DNA of 64,000 bases, taken from the IMG/VR virus record IMGVR_UViG_3300044640_001538; one strand, given 5' to 3'. Shown one piece after another: positions 8,633 to 31,764 of this stretch. Positions within the stretch are counted from its first letter, which is position 1. Each line of letters starts with the position of its first letter. Below the pieces are notes generated by a model. It made no database searches. It saw only the letters and a program-made list of their open reading frames with translations, and was not told the DNA's origin. The DNA comes from a virus. Taxonomy: Duplodnaviria > Heunggongvirae > Uroviricota > Caudoviricetes. The translations under genes were made by a program, and so were the position numbers.

Positions 8633-8635
8633 AGT

Positions 8636-9058: not shown

Positions 9059-9207
9059 ATCTAATTATTTTAAGGTTATTTGTTCTACAATTACATCATC
9101 ATACCCGTCTTGTTCGTACTCAAATGCTAAATTTTCTGCTTGTTGTTTTGTTAGATAGTTGTCGTTTACTTCTGTACCGCCTACCCAAACGGTGTATTTA
9201 TTGTTTT

Positions 9208-9420: not shown

Positions 9421-9440
9421 AAATTATTATTTTTAAGTTT

Positions 9441-9470
9441 ATTTTTTCGCGCAAAAAGATTAAAAAGACA
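9441..9470 (-). repeat. GC-palindrome motif copy (plus strand TTTTTTCGCGCAAAAAGATTAAAAAGACAGCC)
   Basis: One of more than 20 copies of consensus TTTT(T)CGCGCGAAAAAGATTAAAAAGACAG located 10-40 nt upstream of minus-strand start codons. Confidence 0.6.
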
Positions 9471-9657
9471 GCCTTTTTTCAAACTCATCTAAATTCTCTT
9501 CAAAAGTTAATAAGTTCTGATAATACTCATAAAAATCTTCCAACTCTATTAAACTATAATCTGTATGATTAAGCATATAAGAAACCCAATCTTCAAAGTA
9601 ATATATCTCTTGTTCCATATTTTTAGCAAATGTAATTATTAATTTTATATTGTGCAA
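9460..9657 (-). CDS. hypothetical protein (C-terminal codons RLSF* lie within the GC-palindrome motif)
   Basis: ORF in track. Confidence 0.4.
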   Translation of the reverse strand: MHNIKLIITFAKNMEQEIYYFEDWVSYMLNHTDYSLIELEDFYEYYQNLLTFEENLDEFEKRLSF

Positions 9658-9682
9658 ATAGTTTTAGTAATTTATAATGATT

Positions 9683-10069
9683 TTAAATAATATCTTCTTT
9701 ATCAATATAAGTTTCTGTTCTAAATCCTGAATAATCACTAAATTTATATTTTGAAACTTTTATTTTATCCATTTTAAAGCCTAAAATAGTTCCATATAAT
9801 GGTTCTATACTATTTTTTCTTGTTTTATATTTAACTTTGTCGCCTATTTTCATAGTTTTTTCGCCCGAAAAAGAATTAAGAACAGACAAATTAAAAGGTA
9901 CTCCCTCTAAATCATATTCACAAGTGTAACCTACTTCTTCAAGTGCATTAATTAAATCTTCACAAAGTTCATAACTATTTTCTGTAACATCTGTATTCAA
10001 GTTAAAAACATCTATAATATCTTTTACCTTTTTTGGTAAAGTTTCATATTGTTCAAATAAATCTGTCAT
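9683..10069 (-). CDS. hypothetical protein
   Basis: ORF in track. Confidence 0.4.
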   Translation of the reverse strand: MTDLFEQYETLPKKVKDIIDVFNLNTDVTENSYELCEDLINALEEVGYTCEYDLEGVPFNLSVLNSFSGEKTMKIGDKVKYKTRKNSIEPLYGTILGFKMDKIKVSKYKFSDYSGFRTETYIDKEDII

Positions 10070-10241
10070 AATACTATTAATTAAAATCTTCCTCTACAAA
10101 TGAAATGTGTGCATAATGTTCAAAGATAATCTCTTTTGGTATTGAATAAGGGGTTTCATAATCATTTGCTACTTCACAAAAGTAGTTCCACTTTAATTGT
10201 TCTAATTGGTCTTGGTTTAATTCTTGTACGTTCATAATAAA

Positions 10242-10553
10242 TTATATTAAATTATATTCTCTTGCTTTACTTTCTAAAATATAGAAGTTTTCCCTATCTT
10301 CTATTACATATCCGTTTCTTGTTGCATAAAAATCAACTCCTGTTAAGTCGCAAAAATCTTCCCAATCTAAGATTCGGCGTAAAAAACCATAAGAAAAGGG
10401 TATTTTTTCTTCTTTAAAAACTTCATTTAAACTATTGATATACTCATCTTCATCAAGTGGTGCATCAAAATAATTTCCAGCTTGGTCAAAAGCACCTCTT
10501 TCATGCCCTGCTTGAAATGCTTTTCTTAAATCTTCTTCGTTATATGTTTTCAT
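10242..10553 (-). CDS. hypothetical protein
   Basis: ORF in track. Confidence 0.4.
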   Translation of the reverse strand: MKTYNEEDLRKAFQAGHERGAFDQAGNYFDAPLDEDEYINSLNEVFKEEKIPFSYGFLRRILDWEDFCDLTGVDFYATRNGYVIEDRENFYILESKAREYNLI

Positions 10554-10631
10554 TTTGTTAGTTTTAAACGTTTATTTTTATCAAAGGTATATCTCAATAC
10601 CAAAATTATATAAAAGTGTCTTACAATCGTT

Positions 10632-10820
10632 TTAAATGTATCTAAATTGAATATAGTTTGTATTTATATCTTCATTATTAAGTTGTGATAAAAACAAAGA
10701 TATATCTTCCCACACTAACCCATGTATTTCTGCTTCTTCAATAAATTGTTCGTCTGTACAATTAATATAATCAATTTCTGTATCATCTATATTAACTCCG
10801 TAAATTCTTTTTGTGTTCAT
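10632..10820 (-). CDS. small acidic hypothetical protein
   Basis: ORF in track. Confidence 0.35.
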   Translation of the reverse strand: MNTKRIYGVNIDDTEIDYINCTDEQFIEEAEIHGLVWEDISLFLSQLNNEDINTNYIQFRYI

Positions 10821-10846
10821 AATATTAAATTTTTATTTAAAAAGGG

Positions 10847-11050
10847 TTAAACAATAACCCTCTTACCTGTTTGTATATCTATTAAAAAACTATTAATTTC
10901 TGTTTTATATCCTTTTGGTAATTTTTCAAAATATTTTACTTTACCATTATCTAAAACTTCTGCAACTTTTTTACCTTGATACTCAAAAAATAAATCTGTT
11001 TCGTTGCACGTTAAGAATAAATCTTCTTTGTCTAATTTAATGTAGTTCAT
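10847..11050 (-). CDS. hypothetical protein
   Basis: ORF in track. Confidence 0.35.
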   Translation of the reverse strand: MNYIKLDKEDLFLTCNETDLFFEYQGKKVAEVLDNGKVKYFEKLPKGYKTEINSFLIDIQTGKRVIV

Positions 11051-11152
11051 AATGTTTGTGTTTTAAATTCATTACAAATGTATAAATAATTTCCGCAATA
11101 AAAAAATATAAAGTCAAATAAATTTTCCTAAAAACAGAAATTTATAATAAGT

Positions 11153-11371
11153 CTAAATAAGAAACGTTCTTGTTTTTTCAGTTAAATAATTCTGTACATA
11201 AATTTTATTATCTTCTTCACAATAATAATAACAATAGTCGTTATCAATACTAATCTTATCTTTTACTATTCCGTTTTCATCAACTACTGCAAAGTATGGA
11301 TAGATATTTGTAAAATTTTTACCTTTGTTACTTCTTATAAAGTCGATTATATTTTTAATTGTTTGTTTCAT
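11153..11371 (-). CDS. hypothetical protein
   Basis: ORF in track; GC-palindrome motif 11385..11412 upstream. Confidence 0.4.
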   Translation of the reverse strand: MKQTIKNIIDFIRSNKGKNFTNIYPYFAVVDENGIVKDKISIDNDYCYYYCEEDNKIYVQNYLTEKTRTFLI

Positions 11372-11384
11372 TGTTTTATGTTTT

Positions 11385-11412
11385 TAAATTTCGCGCGAAA
11401 AAAGGTTAAAAA
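11385..11412 (-). repeat. GC-palindrome motif copy (AAATTTCGCGCGAAAAAAGGTTAAAAAGATA)
   Basis: Perfect 14-bp palindrome TTTCGCGCGAAA embedded in AT-rich DNA. Confidence 0.6.
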
Positions 11413-11416
11413 GATA

Positions 11417-11623
11417 CTATTCAAATTCATATTCATAACAAGCAAACGGACAAACTTCTCCTGTGTCTGCATCTTGAAAGTTACATAACATTTGTGGGTA
11501 CATTGTATCATCATATCCTAAACCATTATTTGAAGCATAAGTAATAACTAAATCTCTATCAATCCAATCAATATAGTTTTCGTTATCGCTTTTTATTCTA
11601 ACTATTGTATTTACTAAACTCAT
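11417..11623 (-). CDS. small Cys-containing hypothetical protein
   Basis: ORF in track. Confidence 0.35.
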   Translation of the reverse strand: MSLVNTIVRIKSDNENYIDWIDRDLVITYASNNGLGYDDTMYPQMLCNFQDADTGEVCPFACYEYEFE

Positions 11624-11685
11624 AATTTTATATTTTTAAATTGTTATACAAATATATTATTAATTATTTTAATGTGCAAATGTTT

Positions 11686-11892
11686 TTATGTTAGGTTATC
11701 TGATAAATTTAATTTTAAATCAAATTCACTTTTTAAATTATCCCACACACAAAGGTAAATTTCATAATCATACATTAAATATTGTAAATTTCCAATATAC
11801 TTTGTTAATTTTTCTGTTTCTTTTAAATTGAAACTTTTATCTGGGTTGACTGCACTATCACACTCAACTAAATAATACGCTTGTTTACTCAT
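11686..11892 (-). CDS. hypothetical protein
   Basis: ORF in track; motif copy 11910..11945 upstream. Confidence 0.4.
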   Translation of the reverse strand: MSKQAYYLVECDSAVNPDKSFNLKETEKLTKYIGNLQYLMYDYEIYLCVWDNLKSEFDLKLNLSDNLT

Positions 11893-11909
11893 AATTTTTT
11901 ATTTTATAT

Positions 11910-11945
11910 TAAATTTCGCCGCGAAAAAAGATTAAAGACAGAAAA
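11910..11945 (-). repeat. GC-palindrome motif copy
   Basis: AAATTTCGCCGCGAAAAAAGATTAAAGACAGAAAAAAC. Confidence 0.55.
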
Positions 11946-11952
11946 AACTATC

Positions 11953-12120
11953 TACAATACTCTAAAGAAGTTCCTACATCTTCTCCTAAGGTCATATTCT
12001 CTCTAATAGTAGAAGATACTTTAATAACTTCATACATATATATTCCTTTACTATAATCATAAGTAGATAGTATCTCTACATATTTACCTTTGTACTTTTT
12101 ATTTACCTGTTGTTTTGTCA
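11953..12120 (-). CDS. small hypothetical protein (about 55 aa, MTKQQVNKKYKGKYVEILSTYDYSKG...) not in track
   Basis: Hand translation; the stop codon abuts the motif copy. Confidence 0.3.
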
Positions 12121-14034: not shown

Positions 14035-14403
14035 TTAATAAATTATTTCGACTTCTTTCAGTTCGTGAATAGTTAAAAAGATATTGTTAGAATATAATAC
14101 TTTTTCTTCTTGTTTCCACTCGTTTACTTCTGTTTCACTTGCCTCGCAATTTTCTTCATCAACTAAAACTGAATAATGTAAAATGTTTTTTTCTTCCGTT
14201 TCTTCTTCTTCGTGTGGTAACATTGCACCCGCCCAACTGAAACTATAATATAAAAAGTCTTTAAAATACTTTTCAATGGCTTGTTTAGGACTTTCGGCTT
14301 TTACTTCCTTATCTAAACTATATGCGTTTACTTGATTAAGTTCGCCTTGTTCGTAACTATCTACATAAACAATATGTTCTGTATTTATTTTATATGTTTT
14401 CAT
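14035..14403 (-). CDS. acidic hypothetical protein
   Basis: ORF in track. Confidence 0.4.
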   Translation of the reverse strand: MKTYKINTEHIVYVDSYEQGELNQVNAYSLDKEVKAESPKQAIEKYFKDFLYYSFSWAGAMLPHEEEETEEKNILHYSVLVDEENCEASETEVNEWKQEEKVLYSNNIFLTIHELKEVEIIY

Positions 14404-14411
14404 TTTCTTAA

Positions 14412-14582
14412 ATTTTAAAGTATTACTTCCAATCTACCAATTTCTTTACTTCTTAATATGTAACAAGTCTTTAAACCTCTACTTACTTTTACATATTCTA
14501 CTTTATGTTTTTTTAGTGCCGATTTTAAGGCAACCATACTTCCCGCATTTTCTAAAACTATATTTTTTATTTGTTCGTGCAT
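14412..14582 (-). CDS. small hypothetical protein (56 aa, MHEQIKNIVLENAGSMVALKSALKKHKVEY...) not in track
   Basis: Hand translation of minus strand. Confidence 0.25.
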
Positions 14583-15240
14583 ATTATTTTAATTTAATTG
14601 AGATAAACAAATTTGTTTTAATTCTTTTGGCAAACTACTTAATAATTCCGCCAAAGAAAAAGCAATAAAGCAATAATATAAAGTATTAAATTCATACCAT
14701 TGCAACCCGTTTTTAGTTACTATTCTAATCATTGAAAAATTAATCTAAATAAAAATTGATAAACAAACATATATAAAAATATAACTACTAAAATGATTTT
14801 GATATACTTATTCATAATATATTGGGTTTTTAAATTAGTTCCGTTGTATGTTTCGCTCATATTATACTAACAACTATTTAGCAACGGATAATATTTTTTT
14901 ACACATTCATTATTTATAGTTGCAAGATAGTGCTAATACAACTTTTGTTATTCTCTGTAAGGTGCTAACTCACGCCTTTACGCTTTGAGGAAGATTCAAC
15001 CTTAATAACTTGTTACACAATATGTCAAAGAGCGTTGTTCTAATTTGATATAGCAAAGATAAAACAAATTTTTAAACTACCAAATAAAATTTTAATTATT
15101 TTATTAATTTAAAATCATTCTAAATAAGAGCGTTATATCTTTATTCAATCATTTTGATAGTACAAATGTATATTAAACATTTTAAATAAAAAAGTTGTTT
15201 ATTAATTATTTTATTCGTATAATACGTGCGCGTGCGCAAT

Positions 15241-16301: not shown

Positions 16302-16913
16302 CTAACTTACACTTCTTGCAAAATCTATTGCCATTTGTTTTGCATCTTCTAATGTTTTTGCTGTCCATTCTCCTTTGCCCCATTTTTCAGGATATTCAGA
16401 AAACATACCACTTATTTGACCTCTCATTTTTTCATTAGGTGTTTTATCATCATAGGTATAACGTACCCATATTCCTAATTTTCCATCTTGTTCTCCCTCT
16501 TCAGCAATTGGATTTACTTTATGTGTCTCATACATATCTGTGTCACCCCAAAAACGTAAACAGTCTTGTTTAAAATCTTCTTTATTTGATGGTTCAAAAC
16601 CACAATTACCTTGTTTACATTCACTCCCTATACCAAATCCAAATATCGCTCTGTGTGACCAACCATACCATTTCTGTTCTGTGGGGTTAAATCCTATACA
16701 GCAAGTTTTTGGTTCTCCATATCCATCTTGTATTTGTTCAGTGATTCCTTTTTTTAGTAGAAAGTTTAATTCTTCTTCCATTCCTACTCTTGTTAAATAG
16801 GCACCGTCTACTTTTGAATAATAAATTTTACCTTCATCATTAGGGATTCTTGAATCTCCTATATTTGCAATTGAATTAATAAACTCTTGCAACTCTTTTT
16901 TGTTTTCTTTCAT
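16302..16913 (-). CDS. hypothetical protein (203 aa, Cys/Gly/Trp-rich central region)
   Basis: ORF in track; no recognisable motif. Confidence 0.45.
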   Translation of the reverse strand: MKENKKELQEFINSIANIGDSRIPNDEGKIYYSKVDGAYLTRVGMEEELNFLLKKGITEQIQDGYGEPKTCCIGFNPTEQKWYGWSHRAIFGFGIGSECKQGNCGFEPSNKEDFKQDCLRFWGDTDMYETHKVNPIAEEGEQDGKLGIWVRYTYDDKTPNEKMRGQISGMFSEYPEKWGKGEWTAKTLEDAKQMAIDFARSVS

Positions 16914-17155: not shown

Positions 17156-17698
17156 TTATCTTTTATCTTCCATATCTAATCTTGAATACCCATAAGATTG
17201 GTCTTGAATAAGTCTGAAGGTTTTAACAACAGCAAAATTAGCTATTTTAAAATATTCAAAATTTAGTCCATACCCCATCTCTTTAAATTTATCTAAAACT
17301 GATTTTTCTATATTGTCTGGAGTTATGTCTTTTATATTGTTCGTAAATACAAAATTAGCAACTTCACTCATAGCAATATTCTGAAGAGTTTCTTCTGGGT
17401 GATATAAAGTGTTGTATAATGTTTCTATATCTTCAACTGAATAACCAAAAGAACTGCTGATAGTGAGCGTTTGTAAATCTTTTGAAGTTAAAGTTTGAAT
17501 AGGTACTTCTCCAACTCTTAGTCTTGTTTCTTGTATAAAAACGCTATCGAAATAAGGTATTCTGAAGTATATTCCTTTATTTAACTTTTTTATTTTTCTT
17601 CCGTTTCTTACTCTTAATCCTGTTTGCCACGGCTGAATTATTACAAACACTTTAACGGCGTTAAATATATATTCAAAAAATTGTTGTACTTGATTCAA
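17156..17698 (-). CDS. SPFH/band-7 (stomatin/prohibitin-like) domain protein
   Basis: Region VKVFVIIQPWQTGLRVRNGRKIKKLNKGIYFRIPYFDSVFIQETRLRVGEVPIQTLTSKDLQTLTISSSFGYSV fits the SPFH core pattern (qtGl..r.G....l.pG.hf.iP..d.v...d.R). Confidence 0.45.
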   Translation of the reverse strand: MNQVQQFFEYIFNAVKVFVIIQPWQTGLRVRNGRKIKKLNKGIYFRIPYFDSVFIQETRLRVGEVPIQTLTSKDLQTLTISSSFGYSVEDIETLYNTLYHPEETLQNIAMSEVANFVFTNNIKDITPDNIEKSVLDKFKEMGYGLNFEYFKIANFAVVKTFRLIQDQSYGYSRLDMEDKR

Positions 17699-18802: not shown

Positions 18803-19045
18803 TTAACAAGTAATTATTATGTGGTCACTTTTAGTTTCAATCTCATAAGTTTTGTAATGCTCTGATTCTAATCTTGCAAGTAATATTCTTAAAAAATAAC
18901 TTTGAGCTAAATCGTATAATTCTGCATCTGGGTCTAAAACACCACTTCTTTTATCAAAACCTTTATATAAAACTAATTTTTTATCTGTAAACAGTCTTTG
19001 TATTGCTTGGTCTACTGCTCTTGTCGTTTTTCCACTTCTTCTCAT
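18803..19045 (-). CDS. short P-loop (Walker A) protein MRRSGKTTRAV...
   Basis: Walker-A-like RSGKTT at the N-terminus; 80 aa is too short for a full NTPase unless read through into the next ORF. Confidence 0.35.
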   Translation of the reverse strand: MRRSGKTTRAVDQAIQRLFTDKKLVLYKGFDKRSGVLDPDAELYDLAQSYFLRILLARLESEHYKTYEIETKSDHIIITC

Positions 19046-19046
19046 G

Positions 19047-19358
19047 TTATAATAATTTTAATTTTTTAGCTCTCTTTAAAAGAATCTTAATATCTCTATA
19101 GGTTTCTTTCCAATCATACCCTTTTGATTTTAGTTCTTCTTTACACTCTTCTTTAAATTCTTTTTTGCCGCACTCTAAGAAGAAGGTTAGATTGTCATAA
19201 AACAAAGGTTTATCTCCAATTTTACCATCTGTTATTTGAATATATCCAAATTGATAAAGAGGTTCATTTTCTTTATATCCAGATAAATCTTTTTTAACAG
19301 AAATGTTTAATTCTATATCGTTTAGATAAAATTGTACGTTAGTTTGTATTTCGTTCAT
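19047..19358 (-). CDS. hypothetical protein
   Basis: ORF in track. Confidence 0.4.
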   Translation of the reverse strand: MNEIQTNVQFYLNDIELNISVKKDLSGYKENEPLYQFGYIQITDGKIGDKPLFYDNLTFFLECGKKEFKEECKEELKSKGYDWKETYRDIKILLKRAKKLKLL

Positions 19359-19360
19359 AT

Positions 19361-20011
19361 TTATTTAGTATAATTACCAATTAAAAAAGCACCTACAGCA
19401 ACACCAACTGTTACGAAGAAGTTTTTTGTTTTTAACTTTTTATTCTGTTTCTTTAGATTGTTTATATTTTCTTCTGCCGATTTTTCTAACTGTTTTCTTG
19501 CTTCAATTTCTTTTTCCGCCGCAAATAACATTAAATCGTTACCTTTAATTATATCATTCTGCTCCGCAATAATAGTATCTTTATTTTGAGAAATCAGTTC
19601 TAAAATATCACCCTCTTCTAACTCTAAAGCAACTTCTTGAGCAACACAAACTTCCATTCTTAAAGAATCATTAACTAAAGCAGTTGAACCGACCTTATAT
19701 CTATTATTATAATATAAAGCCAAACCGTCTTTTGAAATTTTATCTTTTTTTACAGCCTCTAAAACTTTAATTCTTTTAGTAACAGTTACAATTCTGTCTT
19801 TTCTGTTGTTTATAACATTTTCTAGAGAGTCTTTTAATATAATTCTCTCCTTTTCTAATGTTTTTACGCCGTCTTTTTGTACTTTGTATTTATCTTCTAA
19901 AATAGAATACTCTCCTTTTAACTGTTGGTATCTATCGTTAGAACATTTTGAAAGGAGTAAAAATAAAGCTACAATTACTCCTAAAATTACTAAATTTCTT
20001 TTATTTAACAT
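19361..20011 (-). CDS. membrane-anchored coiled-coil protein
   Basis: N-terminal TM helix LVILGVIVALFLLLS, long charged coiled-coil, C-terminal hydrophobic helix. Confidence 0.45.
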   Translation of the reverse strand: MLNKRNLVILGVIVALFLLLSKCSNDRYQQLKGEYSILEDKYKVQKDGVKTLEKERIILKDSLENVINNRKDRIVTVTKRIKVLEAVKKDKISKDGLALYYNNRYKVGSTALVNDSLRMEVCVAQEVALELEEGDILELISQNKDTIIAEQNDIIKGNDLMLFAAEKEIEARKQLEKSAEENINNLKKQNKKLKTKNFFVTVGVAVGAFLIGNYTK

Positions 20012-20201
20012 CTTTAAAAAATTTATTTAGTTCGTTTTTATCTACTTGCCAAAACAAATAGTCATCTTCCTCTACGGGGTCCAAGTTTTCAATAATGCAA
20101 TCCGAAAAATCTGCAAAATACATCTGCCCTAAATATCTACCGATTTCATCTATAATTAAAACCGTATCTGTACCTCTTATTTGTTCTATTCTAACCAACA
20201 T
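20001..20201 (-). CDS. hypothetical protein
   Basis: ORF in track. Confidence 0.35.
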   Translation of the reverse strand: MLVRIEQIRGTDTVLIIDEIGRYLGQMYFADFSDCIIENLDPVEEDDYLFWQVDKNELNKFFKDVK

Positions 20202-20204
20202 TTC

Positions 20205-21803
20205 TTAAACTTTTGGGTATAGGACTACAACGCCTATGTTAAACATTTTTATTGCCGACTCTGAAGCTGATTCTAAAGCAACTCTAATAGATTTTTTACT
20301 GTCAATAATACCATCTGTTAATAGATTTGAAATTTCATCTTTAACTGCATTATACCCAACTCCAAACTTATCTTCCGAGTGTTTTAAATAGTTTATTCCA
20401 AAGTACTTTTTATTTTTTCTGTTGGCGTTTTTCAAGATTTGCAACATTGGCGACTTTAAAACTGTTTTTACTAAGTTATATCCCTTTTGTTCATCTTTAT
20501 TTGCAAACTTTTTGTACATTAAATTAGAAATAAACACTAAAGTACTTCCTCCACCTGGAATATATCCTTCTGAAATAGCAGATTTAACTGAAGCAAGTGC
20601 ATCGTCAACTCTGTCATACTTCTCTCTAATATCATTTGGTGTTAAACCCCCTACTTCAATAAGACAAGATTTGCCAGATAATCTTTTCATTCTAGCCAAG
20701 TCTGAAGGTGTTTTATCTTCTTTATCTCTCAAAATTTCAACTGCATCGAACACTTCTTGAGGGATATTCGCTACCGAAAGTACAGTTTGGTCATCTGAAA
20801 TAACTGCTTTATCGGCAAAACCTGTAACAAAAATAGGATTATTATCTTTATCTCTCTTAACGGTGTCTGGATTGTAAACTTCTGCTCCAGTGAACATAGC
20901 AATATCGTTCAATAAAGATACATTTTCATATTCTGATTGAACAGCAAGTCCAACTAAACAAATATTTACTCCTGCATTCTTTAAAACAATCAATCTGTCT
21001 TTAAATTCTGTAATAGGTCGTTCTGTAAAGATTAATAAAGGCGCTTTATTACCGTTTCTTTGTACAAAGTATTTTAAAAAGTCTAAAACCTCTGTATTTT
21101 CTTGCCAGATAGATAAACATAAAACAGAAACCTTCTCGTCTTCAAATACTGGTTTAGATTCTTTGTTTATAAAAAATGGAGAAGAAAAACCTTGATTAGG
21201 TAACACCATTCCACTTTGCTCAATAACTTTTATATCTTCTGTATTTTCATTTTTTGAAACTTCTATAACGCCGTCTCTACCAACAGAATTAAAAGCTTGA
21301 ACTATCTTACCACCTAACTCTGTATCGTTATTACAAGAAGTGTTAGCAATCATTCTAAGTGAATTTTCATCTGTATCTATAGCAAAATAATCTAAATTAC
21401 TATACACTTCACTAACTGCTGCTTTTATACCTCTTTCTACGGCTTTATTGAAATTTTTTCTCTTGAAATTGTTTAAGAAAGCTTTTTGAAAGACCATTGT
21501 TGTAGTAGTACTATCTCCAGACTTTTTTAAAGTGGATACAGCACCTTGAATAGCTTGTAAAGCACCAAAGTTTTTTGCTGGCTCTGCAAACCTAATTCTT
21601 AAAGCTACAGAAACACCGTCTTTTGTTAAAATTGGTGCATCTTTATCGTTTCCGCTGTCTAATAGCGAATACTTACCTTCAGCACCTAAAGTTTGAGCAA
21701 CTGCCTCACAAGCTTGTAAATAACCTTCATCTAAAAGGTCATAATCTTTAATCAATATATTGACAACCCCCTTTAACGGAGTTCTTTTTAAACTATTTAT
21801 CAT
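20205..21803 (-). CDS. groEL: phage-encoded GroEL-like chaperonin (Cpn60 family)
   Basis: Cpn60 hallmarks: TKDGVSVA, GDSTTTTMV (compare GDGTTTATV), a GGG ATP-binding loop near the C-terminus (PGGGSTLV), and DGIIDSKKSIRVALESA (compare GIIDPTKVTRSAL). Length 532 aa. Confidence 0.85.
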   Translation of the reverse strand: MINSLKRTPLKGVVNILIKDYDLLDEGYLQACEAVAQTLGAEGKYSLLDSGNDKDAPILTKDGVSVALRIRFAEPAKNFGALQAIQGAVSTLKKSGDSTTTTMVFQKAFLNNFKRKNFNKAVERGIKAAVSEVYSNLDYFAIDTDENSLRMIANTSCNNDTELGGKIVQAFNSVGRDGVIEVSKNENTEDIKVIEQSGMVLPNQGFSSPFFINKESKPVFEDEKVSVLCLSIWQENTEVLDFLKYFVQRNGNKAPLLIFTERPITEFKDRLIVLKNAGVNICLVGLAVQSEYENVSLLNDIAMFTGAEVYNPDTVKRDKDNNPIFVTGFADKAVISDDQTVLSVANIPQEVFDAVEILRDKEDKTPSDLARMKRLSGKSCLIEVGGLTPNDIREKYDRVDDALASVKSAISEGYIPGGGSTLVFISNLMYKKFANKDEQKGYNLVKTVLKSPMLQILKNANRKNKKYFGINYLKHSEDKFGVGYNAVKDEISNLLTDGIIDSKKSIRVALESASESAIKMFNIGVVVLYPKV

Positions 21804-22971
21804 AATTCTCTAGTAGCGTTTGTCCACGCTTTAAAATTGTTAATGACGCTAAAAAATCTGCATTACCTTCGTGAGAACATTTAACACATTTAAACGTTTC
21901 TTGATTAGGTCTGTTTTCTTTTGCAACATACCCACAATTATTACATTCTTGTGAACTATATTTAGCATCTATTTTTATTAATTCTGTTTTGTACTCTAAG
22001 TATTGAGCAAATTTACTCCAACTAACATCTGAAATAGCTTTTGAATAGTTTTTATTTTGTACCATTTTTGATACGTCTAAATCCTCTACAAAAACTGTTT
22101 GATAATTATTAGCTAACTCTCTTGAAACTTTATGAAGATAATCTTCTCTAACTCTTTGTATTTTTAAATAGATTTTCTTTACTTTTTCTACTTCTTTGTA
22201 AAAGTTGTTAGAACCTCTTTTCTTCAAAGCTAACTTTCTTTGAGCATCTGCTAATTTTTTAGCATACTTGTTAGTTGTTTTAATATTCTCAAAAAATTGA
22301 CCGTCTGAGGTAACTGCAAAATGTGTTATCCCTACATCAATTCCTACTTGTGCTTGGTTATTGCATTTTTGGATTTCGTGGTCTGTAACTATTTGTAAGT
22401 ACCAACCGTCAACTTTTTTAACTACTCTTGCTAATTTTATGTTTCCATATACTTCTCTACTTTTAAATATTTTTACTTTTCCTAATTTTGGTAAATTAAA
22501 TTTTCCGTCTTTTTCAAATCTTAAATCTGGAGTTATTCTTTTTGTATTACCTTGATTAAATTCTATTGATTCCCAGTCTTTTTTCTTTGCCCATTTGGGC
22601 TTTCCAATTTCAAATAGTTTCTTTTGATTAATTTCTGTTCCATTTTTTAAACATTTGTTGATGTAATCCTGTTTTAGTTTTGAAATTTTACCTTCTTTAA
22701 AATCTTTGAAAAACTTTTTATAGCTTTTATCAAGTCTTTCTATTGTACTTTGTAATGTGTTAGCATTTACATTAAAAATCCAAGTAAATTCTTTTTTAAG
22801 TTCTGGTAATTGTTTGCATAAATCAAACTTACTTAATTTCACACCTTTAGAATAAGCATATTCTTTAGTCTCTTTTGCTAAATTGTAGATATATCTAGTT
22901 ATGTTTAGATGCTCTTCAAACTTTAATTCAAGGGATTTAGTAGTTTTTATTTTAAAGGTATAGGTTATCAT
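21793..22971 (-). CDS. tnpB: TnpB (IS200/IS605-family OrfB; RNA-guided RuvC nuclease), solo with no tnpA
   Basis: RuvC-I GIDVGITHFAVTSDG, RuvC-II FVEDLDVSKM, zinc finger CNNCGYV...CVKCSHEGNAD, RuvC-III NADFLASLTI; OrfB-type N-terminus. Catalytic D/E/D are present. Confidence 0.85.
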   Translation of the reverse strand: MITYTFKIKTTKSLELKFEEHLNITRYIYNLAKETKEYAYSKGVKLSKFDLCKQLPELKKEFTWIFNVNANTLQSTIERLDKSYKKFFKDFKEGKISKLKQDYINKCLKNGTEINQKKLFEIGKPKWAKKKDWESIEFNQGNTKRITPDLRFEKDGKFNLPKLGKVKIFKSREVYGNIKLARVVKKVDGWYLQIVTDHEIQKCNNQAQVGIDVGITHFAVTSDGQFFENIKTTNKYAKKLADAQRKLALKKRGSNNFYKEVEKVKKIYLKIQRVREDYLHKVSRELANNYQTVFVEDLDVSKMVQNKNYSKAISDVSWSKFAQYLEYKTELIKIDAKYSSQECNNCGYVAKENRPNQETFKCVKCSHEGNADFLASLTILKRGQTLLENYDK

Positions 22972-23105
22972 TACTCTTTCAAGTCTTTAAGAATTAATGT
23001 TCTAACCCAAGAAGATAAAGATAAACCACCTGACTTCGCTTTTTGTTTAGCTTTATTTTTAGTTTCTTCATCAATCCTTATTAAGATATCCTTTTCTTTT
23101 ATCAT
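22971..23105 (-). CDS. ribbon-helix-helix (CopG/Arc-like) protein, 44 aa, not in track; translationally coupled to tnpB (TAATG overlap)
   Basis: Hand translation MIKEKDILIRIDEETKNKAKQKAKSGGLSLSSWVRTLILKDLKE: a beta-strand (ILIRID) followed by two helices is the classic RHH pattern. Its stop shares 1 nt with the tnpB ATG. Confidence 0.6.
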   Translation of the reverse strand: MIKEKDILIRIDEETKNKAKQKAKSGGLSLSSWVRTLILKDLKE

Positions 23106-23117
23106 TGTATTTAATTT

Positions 23118-23160
23118 TATATTGCAAATATACTACATTTATTTTAATTATGCAAATTTA
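23118..23160 (-). promoter_or_regulatory. Bacteroidetes-type promoter driving the RHH-tnpB-groEL operon
   Basis: caaatata at 23125..23132 (RC TATATTTG), with RC TTTG 20 nt upstream (tgcaaattta at 23151..23160). Confidence 0.6.
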
Positions 23161-23189
23161 TTACAACTATTGTACCAATAAATTTTTTA

Positions 23190-23387
23190 TTAAAGTTCAG
23201 TAGAGTATTGTTCGAACTCATCGTCTAAATCTAAATTTACGTGTAAATTGTTAGCTATATTCTCTAACTCTGTTTGTTGTTTTATAAAACTCTTCTTATC
23301 TTTTTCCCAAACTCCTGTCATATTACGACAAAAGTCTTGAAGCTCCCCACTCTCAGCGAGAGCTTCATATAACTTTTTAAAACTCAT
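23190..23387 (-). CDS. hypothetical protein
   Basis: ORF in track. Confidence 0.35.
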   Translation of the reverse strand: MSFKKLYEALAESGELQDFCRNMTGVWEKDKKSFIKQQTELENIANNLHVNLDLDDEFEQYSTEL

Positions 23388-23390
23388 TTT

Positions 23391-23603
23391 TTATTCTTCA
23401 ATTGACTCCAAAAGACTTAAATAGGTTTCCAAAGTAACGTTTTCAAAACTGCCGTCTAAAATGAAATAATTTGGCTGTTTGTCTTTCACTATTTTCAACC
23501 TTAAAGTATCTCCCGTAGTTTCCCAAGATACAAAACTAGCTTTAGTTTTTGCTTTTATTTGGTTCAGCCAGTAACTGTGCGATATCGTGTTCTTGTCCTC
23601 CAT
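23391..23603 (-). CDS. hypothetical protein
   Basis: ORF in track; 62-nt overlap with upstream ORF. Confidence 0.35.
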   Translation of the reverse strand: MEDKNTISHSYWLNQIKAKTKASFVSWETTGDTLRLKIVKDKQPNYFILDGSFENVTLETYLSLLESIEE

Positions 23604-23973
23604 CTTTTAAGTTTTTTGCAACGCCAGTGTTAATATTTTTTTCGTGAATTACGCCCAAAGAAAATAAAACCTGGTCTGCTAATAATGATAATTCTGTTGC
23701 TCCTCTAACTGGTTTGTCTACGTTTCTAAAGAATACGTTTGCTTCTTCTCCCGCATATTCTTGCCATTCAACTAAACTGTCTGTTAAAAAACCTTCTTTA
23801 TTAAAAGTATTATTAACTGTCTTTGGGTATTCGTAAGGTAAAAACAGTTCTGGTTGACTTTCTTTTACTTTTTGCGCAAAAAACATTAAACTAAGTAAGT
23901 TATTTGCTGGTATCAAAATAGATTGGTCATCTGTGTAACCATAATCTAAAGGGTTAATTTGTGTGTTCTCCAT
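23542..23973 (-). CDS. hypothetical protein
   Basis: ORF in track. Confidence 0.4.
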   Translation of the reverse strand: MENTQINPLDYGYTDDQSILIPANNLLSLMFFAQKVKESQPELFLPYEYPKTVNNTFNKEGFLTDSLVEWQEYAGEEANVFFRNVDKPVRGATELSLLADQVLFSLGVIHEKNINTGVAKNLKDGGQEHDIAQLLAEPNKSKN

Positions 23974-23975
23974 GA

Positions 23976-24686
23976 TTAAAAAGGAAGTTTTTGTTCTTTT
24001 GGTTCTGCAAATGCTTGAGCAGGAGTTGCTGTTGGTACTGCGTTTTTAGGCGCTTCTGCTTTTGGTGTAGTGGTATTATTACCCTCTTTCCAAGCTAATC
24101 TTTCAACACTTTCAATTAATGCACCATATAAGAATTCTAATTTAGCCTCTTTTGATGTTGCTGATACTTTTTTCTTACCTGCGAAATCTTTAAACTCTAA
24201 TCTCGGAATATCTCCTTTTGGATTATTTTCTGTCTGATAAGATAATGCTGGTTCGATTTTATTTTCTCCTACTTTTACTGTTAAACCTTTATTATCGTAT
24301 TTAACTTCTTCACCATTAACAGTCTCTCCTTTTTTCATATACCAATTGTTAATTGTATATACTGTTCCCTTTTCCATGTTTGGTAAATACCTTGTAAGTT
24401 GTTCAGTATACTCATCAACTTGGTCTCCTTGCCCCATAACTCTAAAAGTTACTACATAAGTTTCTTCTCCATCTTTTAAATGTACTCTTACTTCTTCTGT
24501 GTTGTTAAGTTTTTCATTAACCCTCTTGTCTACGTGACTTAAAACTCCCGTAACCCCTTTGTTATAATATTTTCTATAACTTTTTGTGCCAGCAGTGTTT
24601 GTATGCTCTACAAATCCTTCTTTAGCTTCTTTTGAGTACTGGAATAAAGTTCCATCGTAATTCACTTGTAAATAGTTTGTCGCCAT
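23976..24686 (-). CDS. hypothetical protein; possible single-stranded DNA-binding protein (C-terminal ...KLPF tail)
   Basis: Flexible Pro/Ala-rich C-terminus ending in LPF, reminiscent of the SSB tail (DIPF); no other motif confirmed. Confidence 0.3.
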   Translation of the reverse strand: MATNYLQVNYDGTLFQYSKEAKEGFVEHTNTAGTKSYRKYYNKGVTGVLSHVDKRVNEKLNNTEEVRVHLKDGEETYVVTFRVMGQGDQVDEYTEQLTRYLPNMEKGTVYTINNWYMKKGETVNGEEVKYDNKGLTVKVGENKIEPALSYQTENNPKGDIPRLEFKDFAGKKKVSATSKEAKLEFLYGALIESVERLAWKEGNNTTTPKAEAPKNAVPTATPAQAFAEPKEQKLPF

Positions 24687-26510: not shown

Positions 26511-26550
26511 CTTCTGCAAATATACGAAATTATTTTTAATTGTGCAAATT
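26511..26550 (-). promoter_or_regulatory. Bacteroidetes-type promoter copy oriented into the ncRNA/tRNA region
   Basis: caaatata at 26517..26524; RC TTTG (tgtgcaaatt) 20 nt upstream. Confidence 0.55.
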
Positions 26551-27229: not shown

Positions 27230-28471
27230 TTATTTTGAATATAGTGGTAATAAGTGTCTAAATTTTTTATGGATTACATTATATAATTTCATAGAGCTAC
27301 TCCTTAATTCATTTAAGGTGGTATACTTTTTAATCTCTTCTGTAATTTTTTCTTCTGTCCAAATTATTCTATCTGTTGTTAAATGCTCTGTTAACTCTGG
27401 ATATAATTTTTTTGCAATATTATAAGCAGATGGATTTTTCTCTATAACTTCTTTAACTGTTTTATACTTTAACATTTCTTCTTTTAAAGTATCTTTGTCC
27501 CACTTTACCTTTATATAAGGTAAGTCTTTATTATATTTTCTATACCTTCTGTATAATAAAGGAAAATTTTTGTATATATCCTCTAATGAACACTCATTTA
27601 TTATATCTTGTTCCTCTTTTGTAAATAAAGGTTTCTTTTCTTTTTTAAATAAAGGCTTATCTAAATCTTCCTCATATACCCAACCAATAGTGTTTGAATT
27701 TATTCTAAGTAACTGTGCTCTTATACAACCTATGCTTTTACCTAATAATATAGATAATTCTCTAACTGAATTTATTTTTTCTTTAGAATAATAATTAAAA
27801 ACAGGTTTTAATTGTGTACTAATTCTTTTTTGTATAGTTTCTAAGGATTGTTTTTTACCTCTATTAGGGTTTCTATCACTTAGCATAAAATCTCTTATTT
27901 TATTTTTTTCCTCATCTGATAATGTTCTTCCAAAAGAAGGGTGGTCGCTACCCTTTTTACCTTTCCAATATTTTGCATTATTCAAGCTCATTCGTTTTTT
28001 ACTTTCTTCAGATGCTTTTTTACCTTTTTGAGCGTTACTTACATTAATTTTGTGATTATCTAGTTCTTCTTGTGTCTTACCTTGTCTCCAATCTTTTCCA
28101 AACATTGGGTGTTTCTCTCCCTTAGATGATTCGCTTAATTTTTTTCTAGTTTCTTCTGATATTTTAGCAGGGTGTTCTTTACAAGCAGTAAGTATGCAAT
28201 TCAAACCGTTACTGCCTAATACATCATAAAAATCTTGCCAATAACGTTCTCGACAATATAAATCAGAGACTTCACATTCTTCTATAATTTCAAAAATATG
28301 ATTTTCTACTCCGTATTTTTGAAAAGAGTTATATAACCTTACTTGAGTCTTTACTTTGTCTGATTTTTTATATGAATTTAATCTGCTCTTTATATTTTTA
28401 CTTTTACCTATATAAATTTTATTGGAGGGAGATGTTATTTTATAAATCCCAGATTTTTCTTTATATGCCAT
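27230..28471 (-). CDS. GIY-YIG homing endonuclease (I-TevI-like, with NUMOD-type repeats)
   Basis: N-terminal SGIYKITSPSNKIYIGKSKNIKSRLNSY (GIY-N10-YIG...R); repeated SEE(T/S)(R/K)KK(L/M)S motifs typical of NUMOD3. Confidence 0.8.
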   Translation of the reverse strand: MAYKEKSGIYKITSPSNKIYIGKSKNIKSRLNSYKKSDKVKTQVRLYNSFQKYGVENHIFEIIEECEVSDLYCRERYWQDFYDVLGSNGLNCILTACKEHPAKISEETRKKLSESSKGEKHPMFGKDWRQGKTQEELDNHKINVSNAQKGKKASEESKKRMSLNNAKYWKGKKGSDHPSFGRTLSDEEKNKIRDFMLSDRNPNRGKKQSLETIQKRISTQLKPVFNYYSKEKINSVRELSILLGKSIGCIRAQLLRINSNTIGWVYEEDLDKPLFKKEKKPLFTKEEQDIINECSLEDIYKNFPLLYRRYRKYNKDLPYIKVKWDKDTLKEEMLKYKTVKEVIEKNPSAYNIAKKLYPELTEHLTTDRIIWTEEKITEEIKKYTTLNELRSSSMKLYNVIHKKFRHLLPLYSK

Positions 28472-28883
28472 TAGAACCTTTTGTTAGTTGATGTTGCCAA
28501 ACTTTTAACGATATCCATCTATTTAAACAACTACTATCTTCTAAACCATTGTTACAAATAATTAGTCTAGCTTCTTCTAAACTAAGTTCAGCCTTAGAAA
28601 AACAAAACTTAATAATACTTTTTTTTATTATAGCTCCATTTTTGACTAATTGTTTAACTTCTTTTGACGAAGACTCATAATTTCGCCAGTTAGATTCCTT
28701 TGTTACAGCTTTTTTCCCGCGCCCACGAGTAGAAGTAAGATTCTTTTTTCCATAATAGTAAAAAGGAGTTCCTATTATCTCTATAAGGTATGTGAAGCCT
28801 ATAGCCAGAGGAGGTACAGTAAAATCTTTTTTACCTTGATATGTCCATTCTATTTTTTCTGTTGTTTTTTTAACTGCCATCAA
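28461..28883 (-). CDS. hypothetical protein
   Basis: ORF in track; 11-nt overlap with the GIY-YIG gene. Confidence 0.35.
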   Translation of the reverse strand: MMAVKKTTEKIEWTYQGKKDFTVPPLAIGFTYLIEIIGTPFYYYGKKNLTSTRGRGKKAVTKESNWRNYESSSKEVKQLVKNGAIIKKSIIKFCFSKAELSLEEARLIICNNGLEDSSCLNRWISLKVWQHQLTKGSNGI

Positions 28884-29192: not shown

Positions 29193-30191
29193 TTAGAATT
29201 TTTCTTTACATAAATTTATAATTTCTAAACAAAGTTCTGGATTATCTTTTAACGTTATTTTAGCTTTATCTTTTCCTTGTCCGATATTAGTTCCATCGTA
29301 ACTGAAGAAAGCCCCAGACTGTTTAACAACACCTAAATCAACTGCATTATTTAAAATATCTAATTCAATGTCAAAGCCTAATCTATTATCATAAGGAAGA
29401 TTAAATTTTGCACCTCTATTTCCAGATAGTTTATCTTTATTAACAGTTACGTTTACTTCTTGACCGATAGTTTTTCCAGTTTTTGTATCCTTGACATTAC
29501 TTCTTGTAAGGTATAATTTTTGACTTGCAAAATCATGTATAGCTCTTCCACCTGGTTCTTTAAATGGTTCAAAAACATTTCCAATATTTTCATAAAGGTG
29601 ATTAGTTATAATCAACGCTGCTTTTGATTTATAGATTTTACCCATTGAACGTCTAAAGAATTTTTTATAAGCTCTTGCTTGTAAACCCATTTGCTGTTCT
29701 TCCATAGTTGCTTGGTATTCTCCTTTTGGAGCCAATGAATCAAAACCGTCAAATATTACAATATCAGCCACCTCACATAAATCTTCTACCATCTCTGCAC
29801 CCTCTTCTAAATAAGTTGGCTGTAGAACGTGAATTCTTTCTTTTTCAATACCAAAATATTTATCAATCCACAAATAAGATGAATCTGACCAGTTAAATTC
29901 ATTATCACAAAAACCAATTATACTGTCTTTATTAGCTCCAGCTAGTGCTAAAGCCATACTCGTTTTACCACAGCTCGCAAAAGCTGAATAAGTTGTTATT
30001 TTTCCTTTTGCTGGTGCTCCACCTAAATATCTATCAAAGGATAAGAACGGATTAACTAATCTTTCTACAGAAGTATCAATATCTTCTAAACTTTTAGGAG
30101 CTTCAAATATCTGTTCTGTCTTCTTGTACTTTGCGTACATTTTATCAATTGCTGATAATTCTCCTTCTTCTGATGTTACTTTTTTTGCCAT
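29193..30191 (-). CDS. RecA/UvsX-like recombinase
   Basis: Walker A SCGKTS, and loop-2 region ITNHLYENIGNVFEPFKEPGGRAIHDFASQKLYLTRS matching RecA NQIR.[30 protein letters not shown]. Confidence 0.7.
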   Translation of the reverse strand: MAKKVTSEEGELSAIDKMYAKYKKTEQIFEAPKSLEDIDTSVERLVNPFLSFDRYLGGAPAKGKITTYSAFASCGKTSMALALAGANKDSIIGFCDNEFNWSDSSYLWIDKYFGIEKERIHVLQPTYLEEGAEMVEDLCEVADIVIFDGFDSLAPKGEYQATMEEQQMGLQARAYKKFFRRSMGKIYKSKAALIITNHLYENIGNVFEPFKEPGGRAIHDFASQKLYLTRSNVKDTKTGKTIGQEVNVTVNKDKLSGNRGAKFNLPYDNRLGFDIELDILNNAVDLGVVKQSGAFFSYDGTNIGQGKDKAKITLKDNPELCLEIINLCKEKF

Positions 30192-30613: not shown

Positions 30614-31058
30614 TTCTAAACTTTTTTATTATTTCTATGTAATCTTCTTTGTAAAATATTTTCATTTGTTTTGACCGTTCTGTTAATTTGTCAAACTCTT
30701 CTTGCCCGTATTTTTCAATTAAAAACTCTTGATATTCTTTGTGATGTTTTGACTTATAGCCTTCTACTTGAACTTGCGCGTCAAAAGTATTAGAAACAGA
30801 AGAAATTAAATGACAGTTAACTAAATCATATCTTGTGCTCATGATGCCCCTATCATAGTAATGACAGACATGTATTTTATCGTAATGATAACTTTGCTTT
30901 TTTAGTGGACACCAAATTCTTTCTCCAAATCCAGCATTCGATTCTATTTTTAATAAATACTGCCTTAACCAATAGTCTGCAACTTTTTTTAAATCAGAAT
31001 TAGATAAACTTTCTAAATCTTCTGTATTATAATCTAGTTTTTTATAGTTGTACTTCAA
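30606..31058 (-). CDS. putative HNH-like nuclease (HVCHYYDRG...NCH)
   Basis: HxxH...G....N..H arrangement resembles the HNH motif; weak. Confidence 0.3.
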   Translation of the reverse strand: MKYNYKKLDYNTEDLESLSNSDLKKVADYWLRQYLLKIESNAGFGERIWCPLKKQSYHYDKIHVCHYYDRGIMSTRYDLVNCHLISSVSNTFDAQVQVEGYKSKHHKEYQEFLIEKYGQEEFDKLTERSKQMKIFYKEDYIEIIKKFRNE

Positions 31059-31764
31059 ATCCTAAATATTTAATTTCTGCTTGCTTTCTAGCTTCAATAG
31101 CATCTTCTAATTTTTCAAACATACCTAGCTCATAACTTATACCTTTTACAGATATTCTTGCTCTATATTTATTTAAATTTTTATAGAAAATAACACCTCT
31201 ATTTTTTACATTGTTTTTATTTAGATTTTGAGTATGAATATCAGCCCATCTACAATTTTCTGGAGAATAATCGCCATTAAAATCTATTCTATCTAAAGTA
31301 TACCCATCTGGTCTTTCTCCCATATCTTCAATAAAATTAAAAAACCCATCTACACCTAACCACCTATCACAAATCTTTATACCTTTACCACCATATCTTT
31401 GGTAATCTTTATCTGTTTCTTGTAGACATCTCTTTTTTATACCGCAGTAGGTATTGTATAAAGGGTGTGTAGTTTGACCGTCTCTTCTTTTTTGTACGGT
31501 ATTTACATCACCGTTGTCCATAAGCCTTCTGTAATGTAATTCACATAAACCTCTTATATATGGTTTAGGTCTTTCGCAATTTTCAACAGAACAACATTGC
31601 GGTCTTATTTTATCTGCCTCAACAATATCTCTATTTTCTTTTACAAATTTTTTATAGTGTGTATTACAAAAACCTCTTGGGTAAAATCTTTTACCATTTC
31701 TATGAAGCTTACCTTGGTTTTTACAACCCTCTACTTTACAACAATCGTAACTCATTTTATTCAC
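31042..31764 (-). CDS. HNH homing endonuclease with C-terminal AP2 DNA-binding domain
   Basis: Two Cys-x-Cys/His zinc modules (CKVEGCKN...FCNTHYKKF; CSVENCER...LCELHYRRL), HNH core DGYTLDRIDFNGDYSPENCRWADIHTQNLN, and AP2-like GVIFYKNLNKYRARISVKGISYELGMFEKLEDAIEARKQAEIKY. Confidence 0.75.
   Translation of the reverse strand: MNKMSYDCCKVEGCKNQGKLHRNGKRFYPRGFCNTHYKKFVKENRDIVEADKIRPQCCSVENCERPKPYIRGLCELHYRRLMDNGDVNTVQKRRDGQTTHPLYNTYCGIKKRCLQETDKDYQRYGGKGIKICDRWLGVDGFFNFIEDMGERPDGYTLDRIDFNGDYSPENCRWADIHTQNLNKNNVKNRGVIFYKNLNKYRARISVKGISYELGMFEKLEDAIEARKQAEIKYLGFEVQL

Follow-up and report, generated by a model that had tools for sequence, protein, structure and literature searches.

We studied a chaperonin gene of the GroEL/Cpn60 type carried by a 64,000-nucleotide (nt) stretch of Caudoviricetes phage DNA (IMG/VR record IMGVR_UViG_3300044640_001538), which at its full length is called the window below. 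The encoded protein has the fold and family membership of a group I chaperonin, keeps an intact ATP site and has been under purifying selection; no GroES gene was found with it, the helix I that binds GroES is remodelled, and a TnpB element is inserted in its first codons. On balance we favour the view that the gene encodes a functional, ATP-driven chaperonin of GroEL fold, which belongs to a GroEL-only clade of Bacteroidota phages and cycles without the canonical GroES lid, and that the tnpB gene next to it is an insertion. The phage copy of GroEL is real and probably working.

A full-length group I chaperonin

The gene under study is:

20205..21803, minus strand: group I chaperonin (GroEL/Cpn60) homologue of 532 amino acids (aa), identified as an open reading frame (ORF) and by Pfam, PHROG, PDB and AF2 (AlphaFold)

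A preliminary description of this DNA had read the same ORF as a highly diverged, phage-encoded GroEL-like chaperonin without a GroES gene, and our results support that reading. The ORF was found on the minus strand, and the four Cpn60 motifs that had been quoted (ILTKDGVSVA, SGDSTTTTMV, IPGGGSTLV and DGIIDSKKSIRVALESA) all occur in its product. Residues 15-532 are the native protein and residues 1-14 (MINSLKRTPLKGVV) are contributed by the TnpB element, from its right end (see below). Pfam matched the hidden Markov model (HMM) PF00118, Cpn60_TCP1, to residues 33-526 of the 532 (E=1.4e-36; 126.7 bits against a gathering cut-off of 34.3), and PHROG 5725, annotated as chaperonin groEL, was matched with E=1.4e-76. 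The best PDB matches were solved bacterial GroELs (E ~1e-50, against 1e-7 for thermosome structures); among the NCBIfam profiles those of GroEL gave E=1e-75 to 3e-67 and those of thermosomes 2e-10. The divergence is considerable: the protein is 27% identical to E. coli GroEL and ~27-31% identical to any cellular GroEL, and with the NCBIfam GroEL models (the equivalog TIGR02348 and the PRK subfamilies) it reached 227-255 bits, below every curated cut-off (352-582).

The AF2 model, built from a 67-sequence alignment, had a mean predicted local distance difference test score (pLDDT) of 91.7, with residues 1-10 below 50 and modelled as disordered. It superposes on the equatorial-intermediate-apical three-domain fold of GroEL with a template modelling (TM) score of ~0.8. 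The top 50 Foldseek matches were all GroEL/Hsp60 proteins, including mitochondrial ones, superposed over the full length, with TM 0.77-0.84 for those in open or apo states. The alignment with E. coli GroEL contained no apical insertion of at least 4 residues that could correspond to the helical lid of group II chaperonins; this and the weak group II profile scores ruled out a thermosome/CCT assignment. Neither the thermosome-type or other-family assignment nor the loss of ATP-binding motifs that the preliminary description had raised as problems for its proposal was thus seen. By fold and profile the protein is a full-length group I chaperonin homologue and a member of the Cpn60 superfamily, although it falls short of a bacterial GroEL proper in its equivalog score, its lack of a GroES partner, the residues N265/L259 and the GGM tail (see below).

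That the gene could be a cellular groEL from a contaminant or a chimeric contig, or else encode a chaperonin of the thermosome type, is a view to which the bacterial GroELs among the best PDB matches might lend something, but we give it hardly any credence: phage genes lie on both sides of the chaperonin, on several independent contigs, its identity to cellular GroELs and its NCBIfam scores are as low as given above, and the profiles favour GroEL (1e-75) over thermosome (~1e-10) in a protein that has no apical lid insertion. Both bacterial contamination and thermosome identity are refuted by the phage context, the divergence and the profile scores.

A protein search recovered ~105 relatives at 36-99% identity (at least 264 bits) and then a sharp drop to ~31% (197 bits or less), past which came other viral and cellular GroELs. 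When 107 proteins of this clade and 79 others were aligned, the nearest neighbour of every clade member lay inside the clade and identity to outsiders was at most 36%. Deposited phage genomes contained no clade member (best match, 31.6% identical) and IMG/VR only two. Judged by these identities, the chaperonin belongs to a separate metagenomic clade, so far uncultured, of more than 100 members.

GroEL-only phage chaperonins have already been studied in the phages EL (phiEL), OBP and AR9 (PMC7185714, PMC9598537). The window chaperonin matched that of phiEL with E=3e-22 over residues 30-251 only and that of OBP with 1e-11, both weaker than the 1e-50 of bacterial GroEL, and the AR9 chaperonin was 18% identical to it in a structural alignment; membership of the phiEL lineage was ruled out by these values. 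The protein is best filed as a new lineage within the known category of phage-encoded GroEL-only chaperonins, its GroEL-only state having apparently been reached by independent descent. The comparison with phiEL-type chaperonins in the preliminary description holds as regards the missing co-chaperonin gene and not as regards descent, and its remark that phage chaperonins are rare was too strong, GroEL-only viral clades having already been published (PMC5649160).

Absence of GroES and remodelling of helix I

The preliminary statement that no GroES gene lies nearby holds far beyond the window, over ~117 kb of the phage (~95% of its genome). Among the six-frame ORFs of at least 40 aa in the window, a Cpn10 HMM, single-sequence searches and T4 gp31 gave nothing below E ~0.2, and a Pfam scan of 90 small window ORFs had no Cpn10 among its matches down to E=0.011. 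Exact-sequence look-ups were then used to walk outward to the window-equivalent positions +87.5 kb (3' side) and ~-29.8 kb (5' side), along contigs that included L006, 100% identical to window 1-12112, and further out an ENA contig 99.65% identical over the L006 overlap; the two ends of the walk do not overlap. In the window and the ~53 kb walked beyond it no GroES was found with the cellular HMM, with the GroES of Cellulophaga phage phi4:1 or with two viral GroES HMMs made from 58 viral GroES sequences, and PF00166 was absent from the precomputed Pfam lists of the walked loci. These searches are sensitive, since the phi4:1 GroES used as positive control scored 1.6e-8 and a GroES match was obtained at 59 of 78 other viral GroEL loci in IMG/VR (immediately adjacent in 56, upstream or downstream). 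At none of the six clade loci examined (the window, L013, L014, L015, L029 and L030) did a search of up to 10 kb around the chaperonin reveal a GroES gene.

The residues of the protein were compared with those of E. coli GroEL, whose numbering is used here (reference sequence identical to PDB 4pkn), of 104 clade members and of 58 GroES-coupled viral GroELs, in an L-INS-i alignment. All the ATP and catalytic residues are present in the window protein: D52, D87, T89-T91, D398, G414-416, N479 and D495. In the 104 clade members D52, D87, T89, D398, G414-416 and D495 are invariant, and K51, T90, T91 and N479 nearly so. The clade has its own signatures, TLGAEG for TLGPKG, GDSTTT for GDGTTT and D-S for D-P, whereas the GroES-coupled viral GroELs all keep G88 and P496 (58/58). 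Selection on the gene could be measured between alleles with and without the TnpB element: the ratio of non-synonymous to synonymous substitution rates (dN/dS) was 0.057 (27 synonymous and 6 non-synonymous changes).

The apical surface is conserved in one part and changed in another. The substrate-binding segment stays hydrophobic (Y199F, Y203F and F204, with S201 kept), as does helix H (M233V, L234 and L237; L240 and L243 in the window protein). Helices H and I together form the groove for the GroES mobile loop. In helix I, N265 is N in 58/58 GroES-coupled proteins and in E. coli GroEL, and 98% of clade members have L/I/F at this position (the window protein, L274). A hydrophobic residue is found at L259 in 20% of the clade vs 83% of the GroES-coupled set (K268 in the window protein), at V264 in 8% vs 97% (V273 of the window protein being the minority state) and at M267 in 5% vs 79%, so that positions 259, 264 and 267 are polar or variable in the clade; V263 is I in the window protein (I272). 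R268 is replaced by V/I/A, E238 by K/Q/R and A258 by F/M/L in the clade, and in the window protein R268 by A and E238 by K. The R197-E386 inter-subunit salt bridge is absent, and the inter-ring contact residues are not conserved: L454 stands for R452, K463 for E461, K465/K466 for S463 and V464, and R115 for A109, and K105 is deleted. The C-terminal GGM tail was found in 0/104 clade members; the window protein ends in ...VVLYPKV at the end of the equatorial domain. According to this alignment the GroES-binding helix I is remodelled in the clade, and the differences would be those expected if canonical GroES no longer docked; the canonical double ring may not form.

We propose that the chaperonin would assemble into heptameric rings, bind phage proteins in their non-native state with a conserved hydrophobic stretch of the apical domain (the equivalents of Y199/Y203/F204 plus helix H) and cycle these clients by ATP hydrolysis without a canonical GroES lid, by analogy with the chaperonins of EL, OBP and AR9. 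The likely clients would be large virion proteins made late in infection.

Several points weigh against this proposal. The independence from a co-chaperonin is read from a sequence pattern only, and the function of the clade is predicted. The window protein keeps a hydrophobic helix H (L240, L243) and I272/V273, therefore a weak interaction with host GroES is possible. The walk left ~4-7 kb of the genome unseen and ran in part on a contig from the 99.65% identical strain, and HMM searches would miss a lid protein that is non-homologous or has diverged very far. The purifying selection that was measured may largely predate the TnpB insertion, and expression of the interrupted allele is predicted.

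The first alternative is that the lid is host GroES, i.e., that the phage supplies only the large subunit of a conventional GroEL/GroES machine. Marine et al. raised the use of host GroES as an option for their own GroEL-only clade (PMC5649160), no phage GroES was found here, and the window protein keeps the apical hydrophobics (Y199F, Y203F, F204F, L234L, L237L, V263I and V264V). We see in it a real, though minor, possibility: the asparagine at 265 that all GroES-coupled proteins share is lost almost throughout the clade, the window protein has also changed L259 and E238 to K and R268 to A, and GroES binding is absent in phiEL, which among GroEL-only phage chaperonins has been studied best (PMC7185714).

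The second alternative, that an unrecognised phage cofactor replaces GroES, leads to the small genes conserved around the chaperonin:

23391..23603, minus strand: p70, a 70-aa ORF of the conserved upstream module, with homologues upstream of the chaperonin in L013, L015, L029 and L030

23190..23387, minus strand: p65, a 65-aa ORF directly upstream, conserved beside the chaperonin in clade members

20001..20201, minus strand: p66, a 66-aa ORF that directly follows the chaperonin gene and is kept close to it in L013, L015 and L029

Besides L013, p70 and p65 accompany the chaperonin in L015 and L029/L030, whose chaperonins are just 41-44% identical to that of the window, and the downstream 66-aa ORF and a 216-aa ORF are conserved in L015 and L029. 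None of the p70, p65, p66 and 216-aa ORFs was found in phi4:1, which has no GroEL, beside the chaperonin of L014 or at the 78 non-clade GroEL loci. The end of p65 overlaps the chaperonin start in the uninterrupted allele, consistent with translational coupling; in the window the C-terminus of p65 is altered by the insertion. Such persistence beside diverged chaperonins, and only there, is what speaks for a cofactor among p70, p65 and p66. We hold it to be decidedly unlikely, given that the three have no significant family match (Pfam, PHROG) and no similarity to Cpn10 or gp31, that they are missing beside the chaperonin in L014, and that related phages can be expected to share gene order even where the genes have nothing to do with each other. 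The conserved neighbours may be no more than synteny, but apart from them there are no candidates for a clade-specific cofactor.

A more speculative version, to which we would give a small chance, is that the clade is an independently evolved co-chaperonin-free lineage in which the remodelled helix I, with its charged exposed face, gives the ring a new kind of closure or gate, or serves as a docking site for small clade-specific proteins of the p70-p65-chaperonin-p66 module that replace GroES. If true, the clade would possess a chaperonin lid or cofactor system of a new type.

A TnpB element in the first codons of the chaperonin gene

The following features belong to the insertion at the 5' end of the chaperonin gene:

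21763..23205, minus strand: inserted mobile element of 1443 nt, defined by blastn against the empty site of L013

21793..22971, minus strand: tnpB, IS200/IS605-type RNA-guided endonuclease of 392 aa (Pfam OrfB_IS605 and Cas12f1-like_TNB)

22971..23105, minus strand: ribbon-helix-helix (RHH; NikA/RelB-like) ORF of 44 aa (Pfam NikA-like, 1.1e-5)

23125..23156, minus strand: Bacteroidetes-type promoter-like motif (TTTG-N20-TATATTTG) in the left end of the element, conserved in the L030 copy, with a putative function

21743..21990, minus strand: expected omega-RNA region from RNA folding, comprising the 3' part of tnpB, the right end and 20 nt of flank

L013 is a 97.8% identical phage contig that keeps the gene order and has no TnpB. 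In blastn alignments window 23973..23206 corresponded to L013 1572..2339 and window 21762..20201 to L013 2335..3896, placing the empty site at ~2335-2339; the ends of the element are ambiguous by the 5-nt CAATA found at both junctions. The L013-type empty site reads ...GAACAATA/TATTGATTAAAG..., i.e., ...GACG ATG AGT TCG AAC AAT A/TA TTG ATT AAA..., which encodes the MSSNNILIK of the chaperonin, and the element interrupts this native frame within codon 5/6, between MSSNN and ILIK. Without the insertion the chaperonin is 522 aa long.

The TnpB protein scored 247 bits with NF040570, guided_TnpB (NCBIfam cut-off, 100), and E=6e-32 with the ISDra2 TnpB structures. Its best PDB match was an AI-designed RNA-guided nuclease (9yyg), in an alignment where GIDVGI (D), VEDL (E), NAD (D) and the CxxC..CxxC cysteines, that is, the RuvC D/E/D residues and the zinc-finger cysteines, line up. 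The RHH ORF matched YlcI/RelB-type NCBIfam models at 4e-5 to 6e-5, all below cut-off. It lies upstream of tnpB, where tnpA would otherwise sit, no tnpA (Y1 transposase) being found in the element, and it travels with TnpB; it may be a regulator of the element. A second RHH+TnpB copy (84%/73% aa identity) occurs elsewhere in the clade phage L030, at 2173-3410, and the right ends of the window and L030 elements are conserved up to ...GTTGTCAAT and then diverge. The only IMG/VR relative that the TnpB query recovered, L028, was 48% identical and too diverged to define the element ends. Because L013 has an empty site and L030 a second copy at another locus, the RHH+TnpB unit is a discrete mobile element. 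It landed recently in the first codons of the chaperonin. TnpB is no partner of the chaperonin: the element that carries it sits in codon 5 by insertion and is missing from L013, a phage 97.8% identical, and the association of the two proteins is accidental.

The tnpB ORF overlaps the chaperonin start by 11 nt, its stop codon overlapping a new in-frame chaperonin ATG at 21803, inside the right end of the element; an alternative in-frame TTG start is preceded by AAAGGGGG. Neither a terminator-like site nor a promoter-like motif was found between tnpB and the chaperonin, and the motif in the left end of the element is the nearest Bacteroidetes-type one upstream of the RHH-tnpB-chaperonin series. 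Co-transcription of the three genes is likely, because they share a strand, the 11-nt overlap and the lack of a terminator, and the only nearby Bacteroidetes-type motif is in the left end of the element. The co-transcription with TnpB stated in the preliminary description is thus probably correct, but as a consequence of a chance insertion and not as a functional partnership. Two features would rescue expression of the interrupted gene: the ATG in the right end, with which the protein gains a disordered N-terminus of 14 residues, and read-through from the promoter of the element.

We also considered that the window gene is on its way to becoming a pseudogene, its expression lost when the insertion cut it off from its native start and from the upstream coupling. 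The loss of the native ATG and of the overlap with the upstream ORF through the codon 5/6 insertion would agree with decay, as would the lack of a promoter-like motif between tnpB and the chaperonin. Against it, the full 532-codon frame is open, with both alternative starts in frame; the element has the orientation of the chaperonin and no terminator, so that read-through reaches the gene; 6 contigs, from samples of at least 3 datasets, carry the interrupted allele and encode an identical protein; and dN/dS is low. A decaying gene seems to us very improbable. We consider the interrupted allele still functional because of the dN/dS of 0.057 and the identical protein on six contigs, although that selection may in large part be older than the insertion.

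It has been reported that the guide of the omega-RNA is the flank directly 3' of the right end of a TnpB element (PMC10055086, PMC10690162). By analogy, the putative omega-RNA would end in UAUUGAUUAAAGAUUAUGAC and its putative guide would be chaperonin codons 6-12 (TATTGATTAAAGATTATGAC), and in a co-infecting relative TnpB would cleave the allele that has no insertion, which would drive homing. The RNA fold at the right end had -47.3 kcal/mol (z=-2.8), and an Rfam scan of this region gave no match to an omega-RNA family. With both filled and empty alleles available, this locus would be a ready-made case for TnpB homing between co-infecting phages.

The phage and its place among chaperonin-encoding phages

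The window is phage DNA, with genes for terminase, portal, virion proteins, helicase, UvsX/RecA, PhoH, HNH and GIY-YIG homing endonucleases and a small tyrosine recombinase. The landmarks used here are:

29193-30191: UvsX/RecA

39692-42307: large terminase

42383-45178: portal

46482-48206: putative major capsid protein

Among cultured phages, phi4:1 and phi17:2 of Cellulophaga (145 kb; genus Lightbulbvirus) come nearest, with a terminase 32% identical over the full length. Megablast of window 19000-24000 against deposited phages gave no match, and a scan of metagenome collections gave relatives just 68-78% identical, on short contigs. Sequence similarity makes the phage a distant relative of phi4:1/phi17:2 and of the crAss-like phages. 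Its genome is estimated at ~121-124 kb, based on contigs of 19.4 and 101.9 kb in one sample and one contig of 121.5 kb, and the window would be about half of it; identical copies of the chaperonin are found on metagenomic contigs of 102-106 kb. Just past the 3' end of the window there are crAss ring-protein domains (CrAss_Ring_1/2) and then a 2231-aa ORF (together at L021 14100-16115 and 16123 onward; L027 10884-17579), a layout that suggests crAss-like virion-packaged proteins and a link to Crassvirales-like phages.

The host is probably in the Bacteroidota, because a Bacteroidetes-type promoter motif, TTTG-N17-21-TAnnTTTG, is enriched 4-fold in the window (20 vs 5.2+-2.3; 0/100 shuffles reached 20). 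Most copies are on the coding strand, a short way ahead of genes, and the motif often reads TTTGCACAATTAAAA..GTATATTTG:

1296-1327, 3708-3739, 11649-11680, 26517-26548 and 35473-35504, minus strand: examples of the motif

42330-42360 and 60636-60667, plus strand: examples of the motif

A sigma-70 promoter scan of the locus stayed at chance level and was uninformative. The Bacteroidetes-type motif, by contrast, was informative; it helps to assign a host and to map transcription units.

Note that selfish elements are not limited to TnpB. Homing-endonuclease genes (GIY-YIG/NUMOD3, SegE-like and two HNH) are unusually dense at 27230-28471, 28461-28883, 31042-31764 and 38526-39707, and beyond the window the ribonucleotide reductase (RNR) genes are split by a DUF723 ORF (L025 10001-10798); the genome is heavily colonised by such elements. 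Downstream of the chaperonin, a 203-aa ORF at 16302-16913 (minus strand) matched Tad6, an inhibitor of type I Thoeris (Pfam E=3.4e-43). Because the segment 16159-16914 is swapped for an unrelated ~307 nt in L013, which is otherwise 93-99% identical, and several assemblies break between ~16.2 and 20.1 kb, this part of the genome looks like a variable anti-defence hotspot. A SPFH/Band 7 protein at 17156-17698 (minus strand; Pfam E=1.1e-14) is also present in phi4:1, as gp165, annotated as a virion part. Elsewhere, a 140-aa ORF at 8636-9058 (minus strand) matched ArdA (antirestriction) weakly, its 25.7 bits (E=2e-5) falling narrowly short of the cut-off (27), and in L015, whose chaperonin is 41% identical, a gene with an Acb3 (anti-CBASS) domain lies ~3 kb downstream of the chaperonin (14181-14945).

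Set beside the GroEL-GroES system of E. coli, the window protein has in common the three-domain fold, the ATP/Mg site, the hydrophobic Y199/Y203/F204 segment and helix H; it differs in its low identity, in having no groES, in the replacement of N265/L259/E238/R268 and of R197-E386, in the loss of the R452, E461, S463, V464 and A109 contacts, K105 and the GGM tail, and in its own TLGAEG/GDSTTT/D-S signatures. The viral GroES>GroEL and GroEL>GroES operons (IMG/VR L031-L108; Cellulophaga phi38:1 type) encode group I homologues ~30% identical to it, with an adjacent GroES in 56/78, and these keep N265, L259, V264, R268, G88 and P496, which the window clade does not.

Closer in strategy are the chaperonins of Pseudomonas phages EL (gp146) and OBP (gp246) and of Bacillus phage AR9, likewise phage GroEL homologues without a co-chaperonin gene. 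The helix H/I groove of phiEL is closed and remodelled and does not bind GroES (PMC7185714); remodelling of this groove is shared with the window clade, and the expected role of both would be the folding of phage proteins without GroES. EL, OBP and AR9 are jumbo phages of Pseudomonas or Bacillus, while the window phage, of ~120 kb, is related to crAss-like phages and Lightbulbvirus, infects presumably Bacteroidota and represents another lineage. The phiEL/OBP/AR9 type is a functional category and not a clade, and the window protein falls in it by having no co-chaperonin gene. A virioplankton survey (Marine et al. 2017) had defined a 'GroEL' clade without GroES, for which either no co-chaperonin or that of the host was considered (PMC5649160). 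Both that clade and ours consist of metagenomic viral GroELs on contigs without a GroES gene; there the evidence was the contig neighbourhood only, while here the absence of GroES covers ~95% of a genome. GroEL-only phages are thus already known, and the novelty is lower than the preliminary description implied.

The relation to phi4:1 is of a different kind. The two phages have a common backbone (terminase, portal/structural module and recA), and in both a gene of the chaperonin system lies a few kb downstream of recA. No GroEL was found in phi4:1, which encodes GroES (gp096; NC_021788.1 101511-101810, equal to L018 1511-1810) and two DnaJ-domain proteins (gp120 and gp151). The strategy of phi4:1, as of T4 with gp31, is GroES only, and the window phage is its mirror image, a GroEL without GroES.

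GroES-free phage chaperonins serve as models of how a minimal chaperonin and a single-ring cycle work, and to our knowledge only three have been studied (EL, OBP and AR9), all from jumbo phages. The function of the present clade is predicted; its helix I signature is clear-cut and its size considerable, and the pair of alleles with and without TnpB in codon 5 is a tidy natural experiment. As a well-populated separate lineage with an intact ATPase site and an altered helix I, the clade would offer an independent natural test of a lidless GroEL, and GroEL-only and GroES-only relatives together would be a compact system for asking why phages take one half of the host chaperonin machine.

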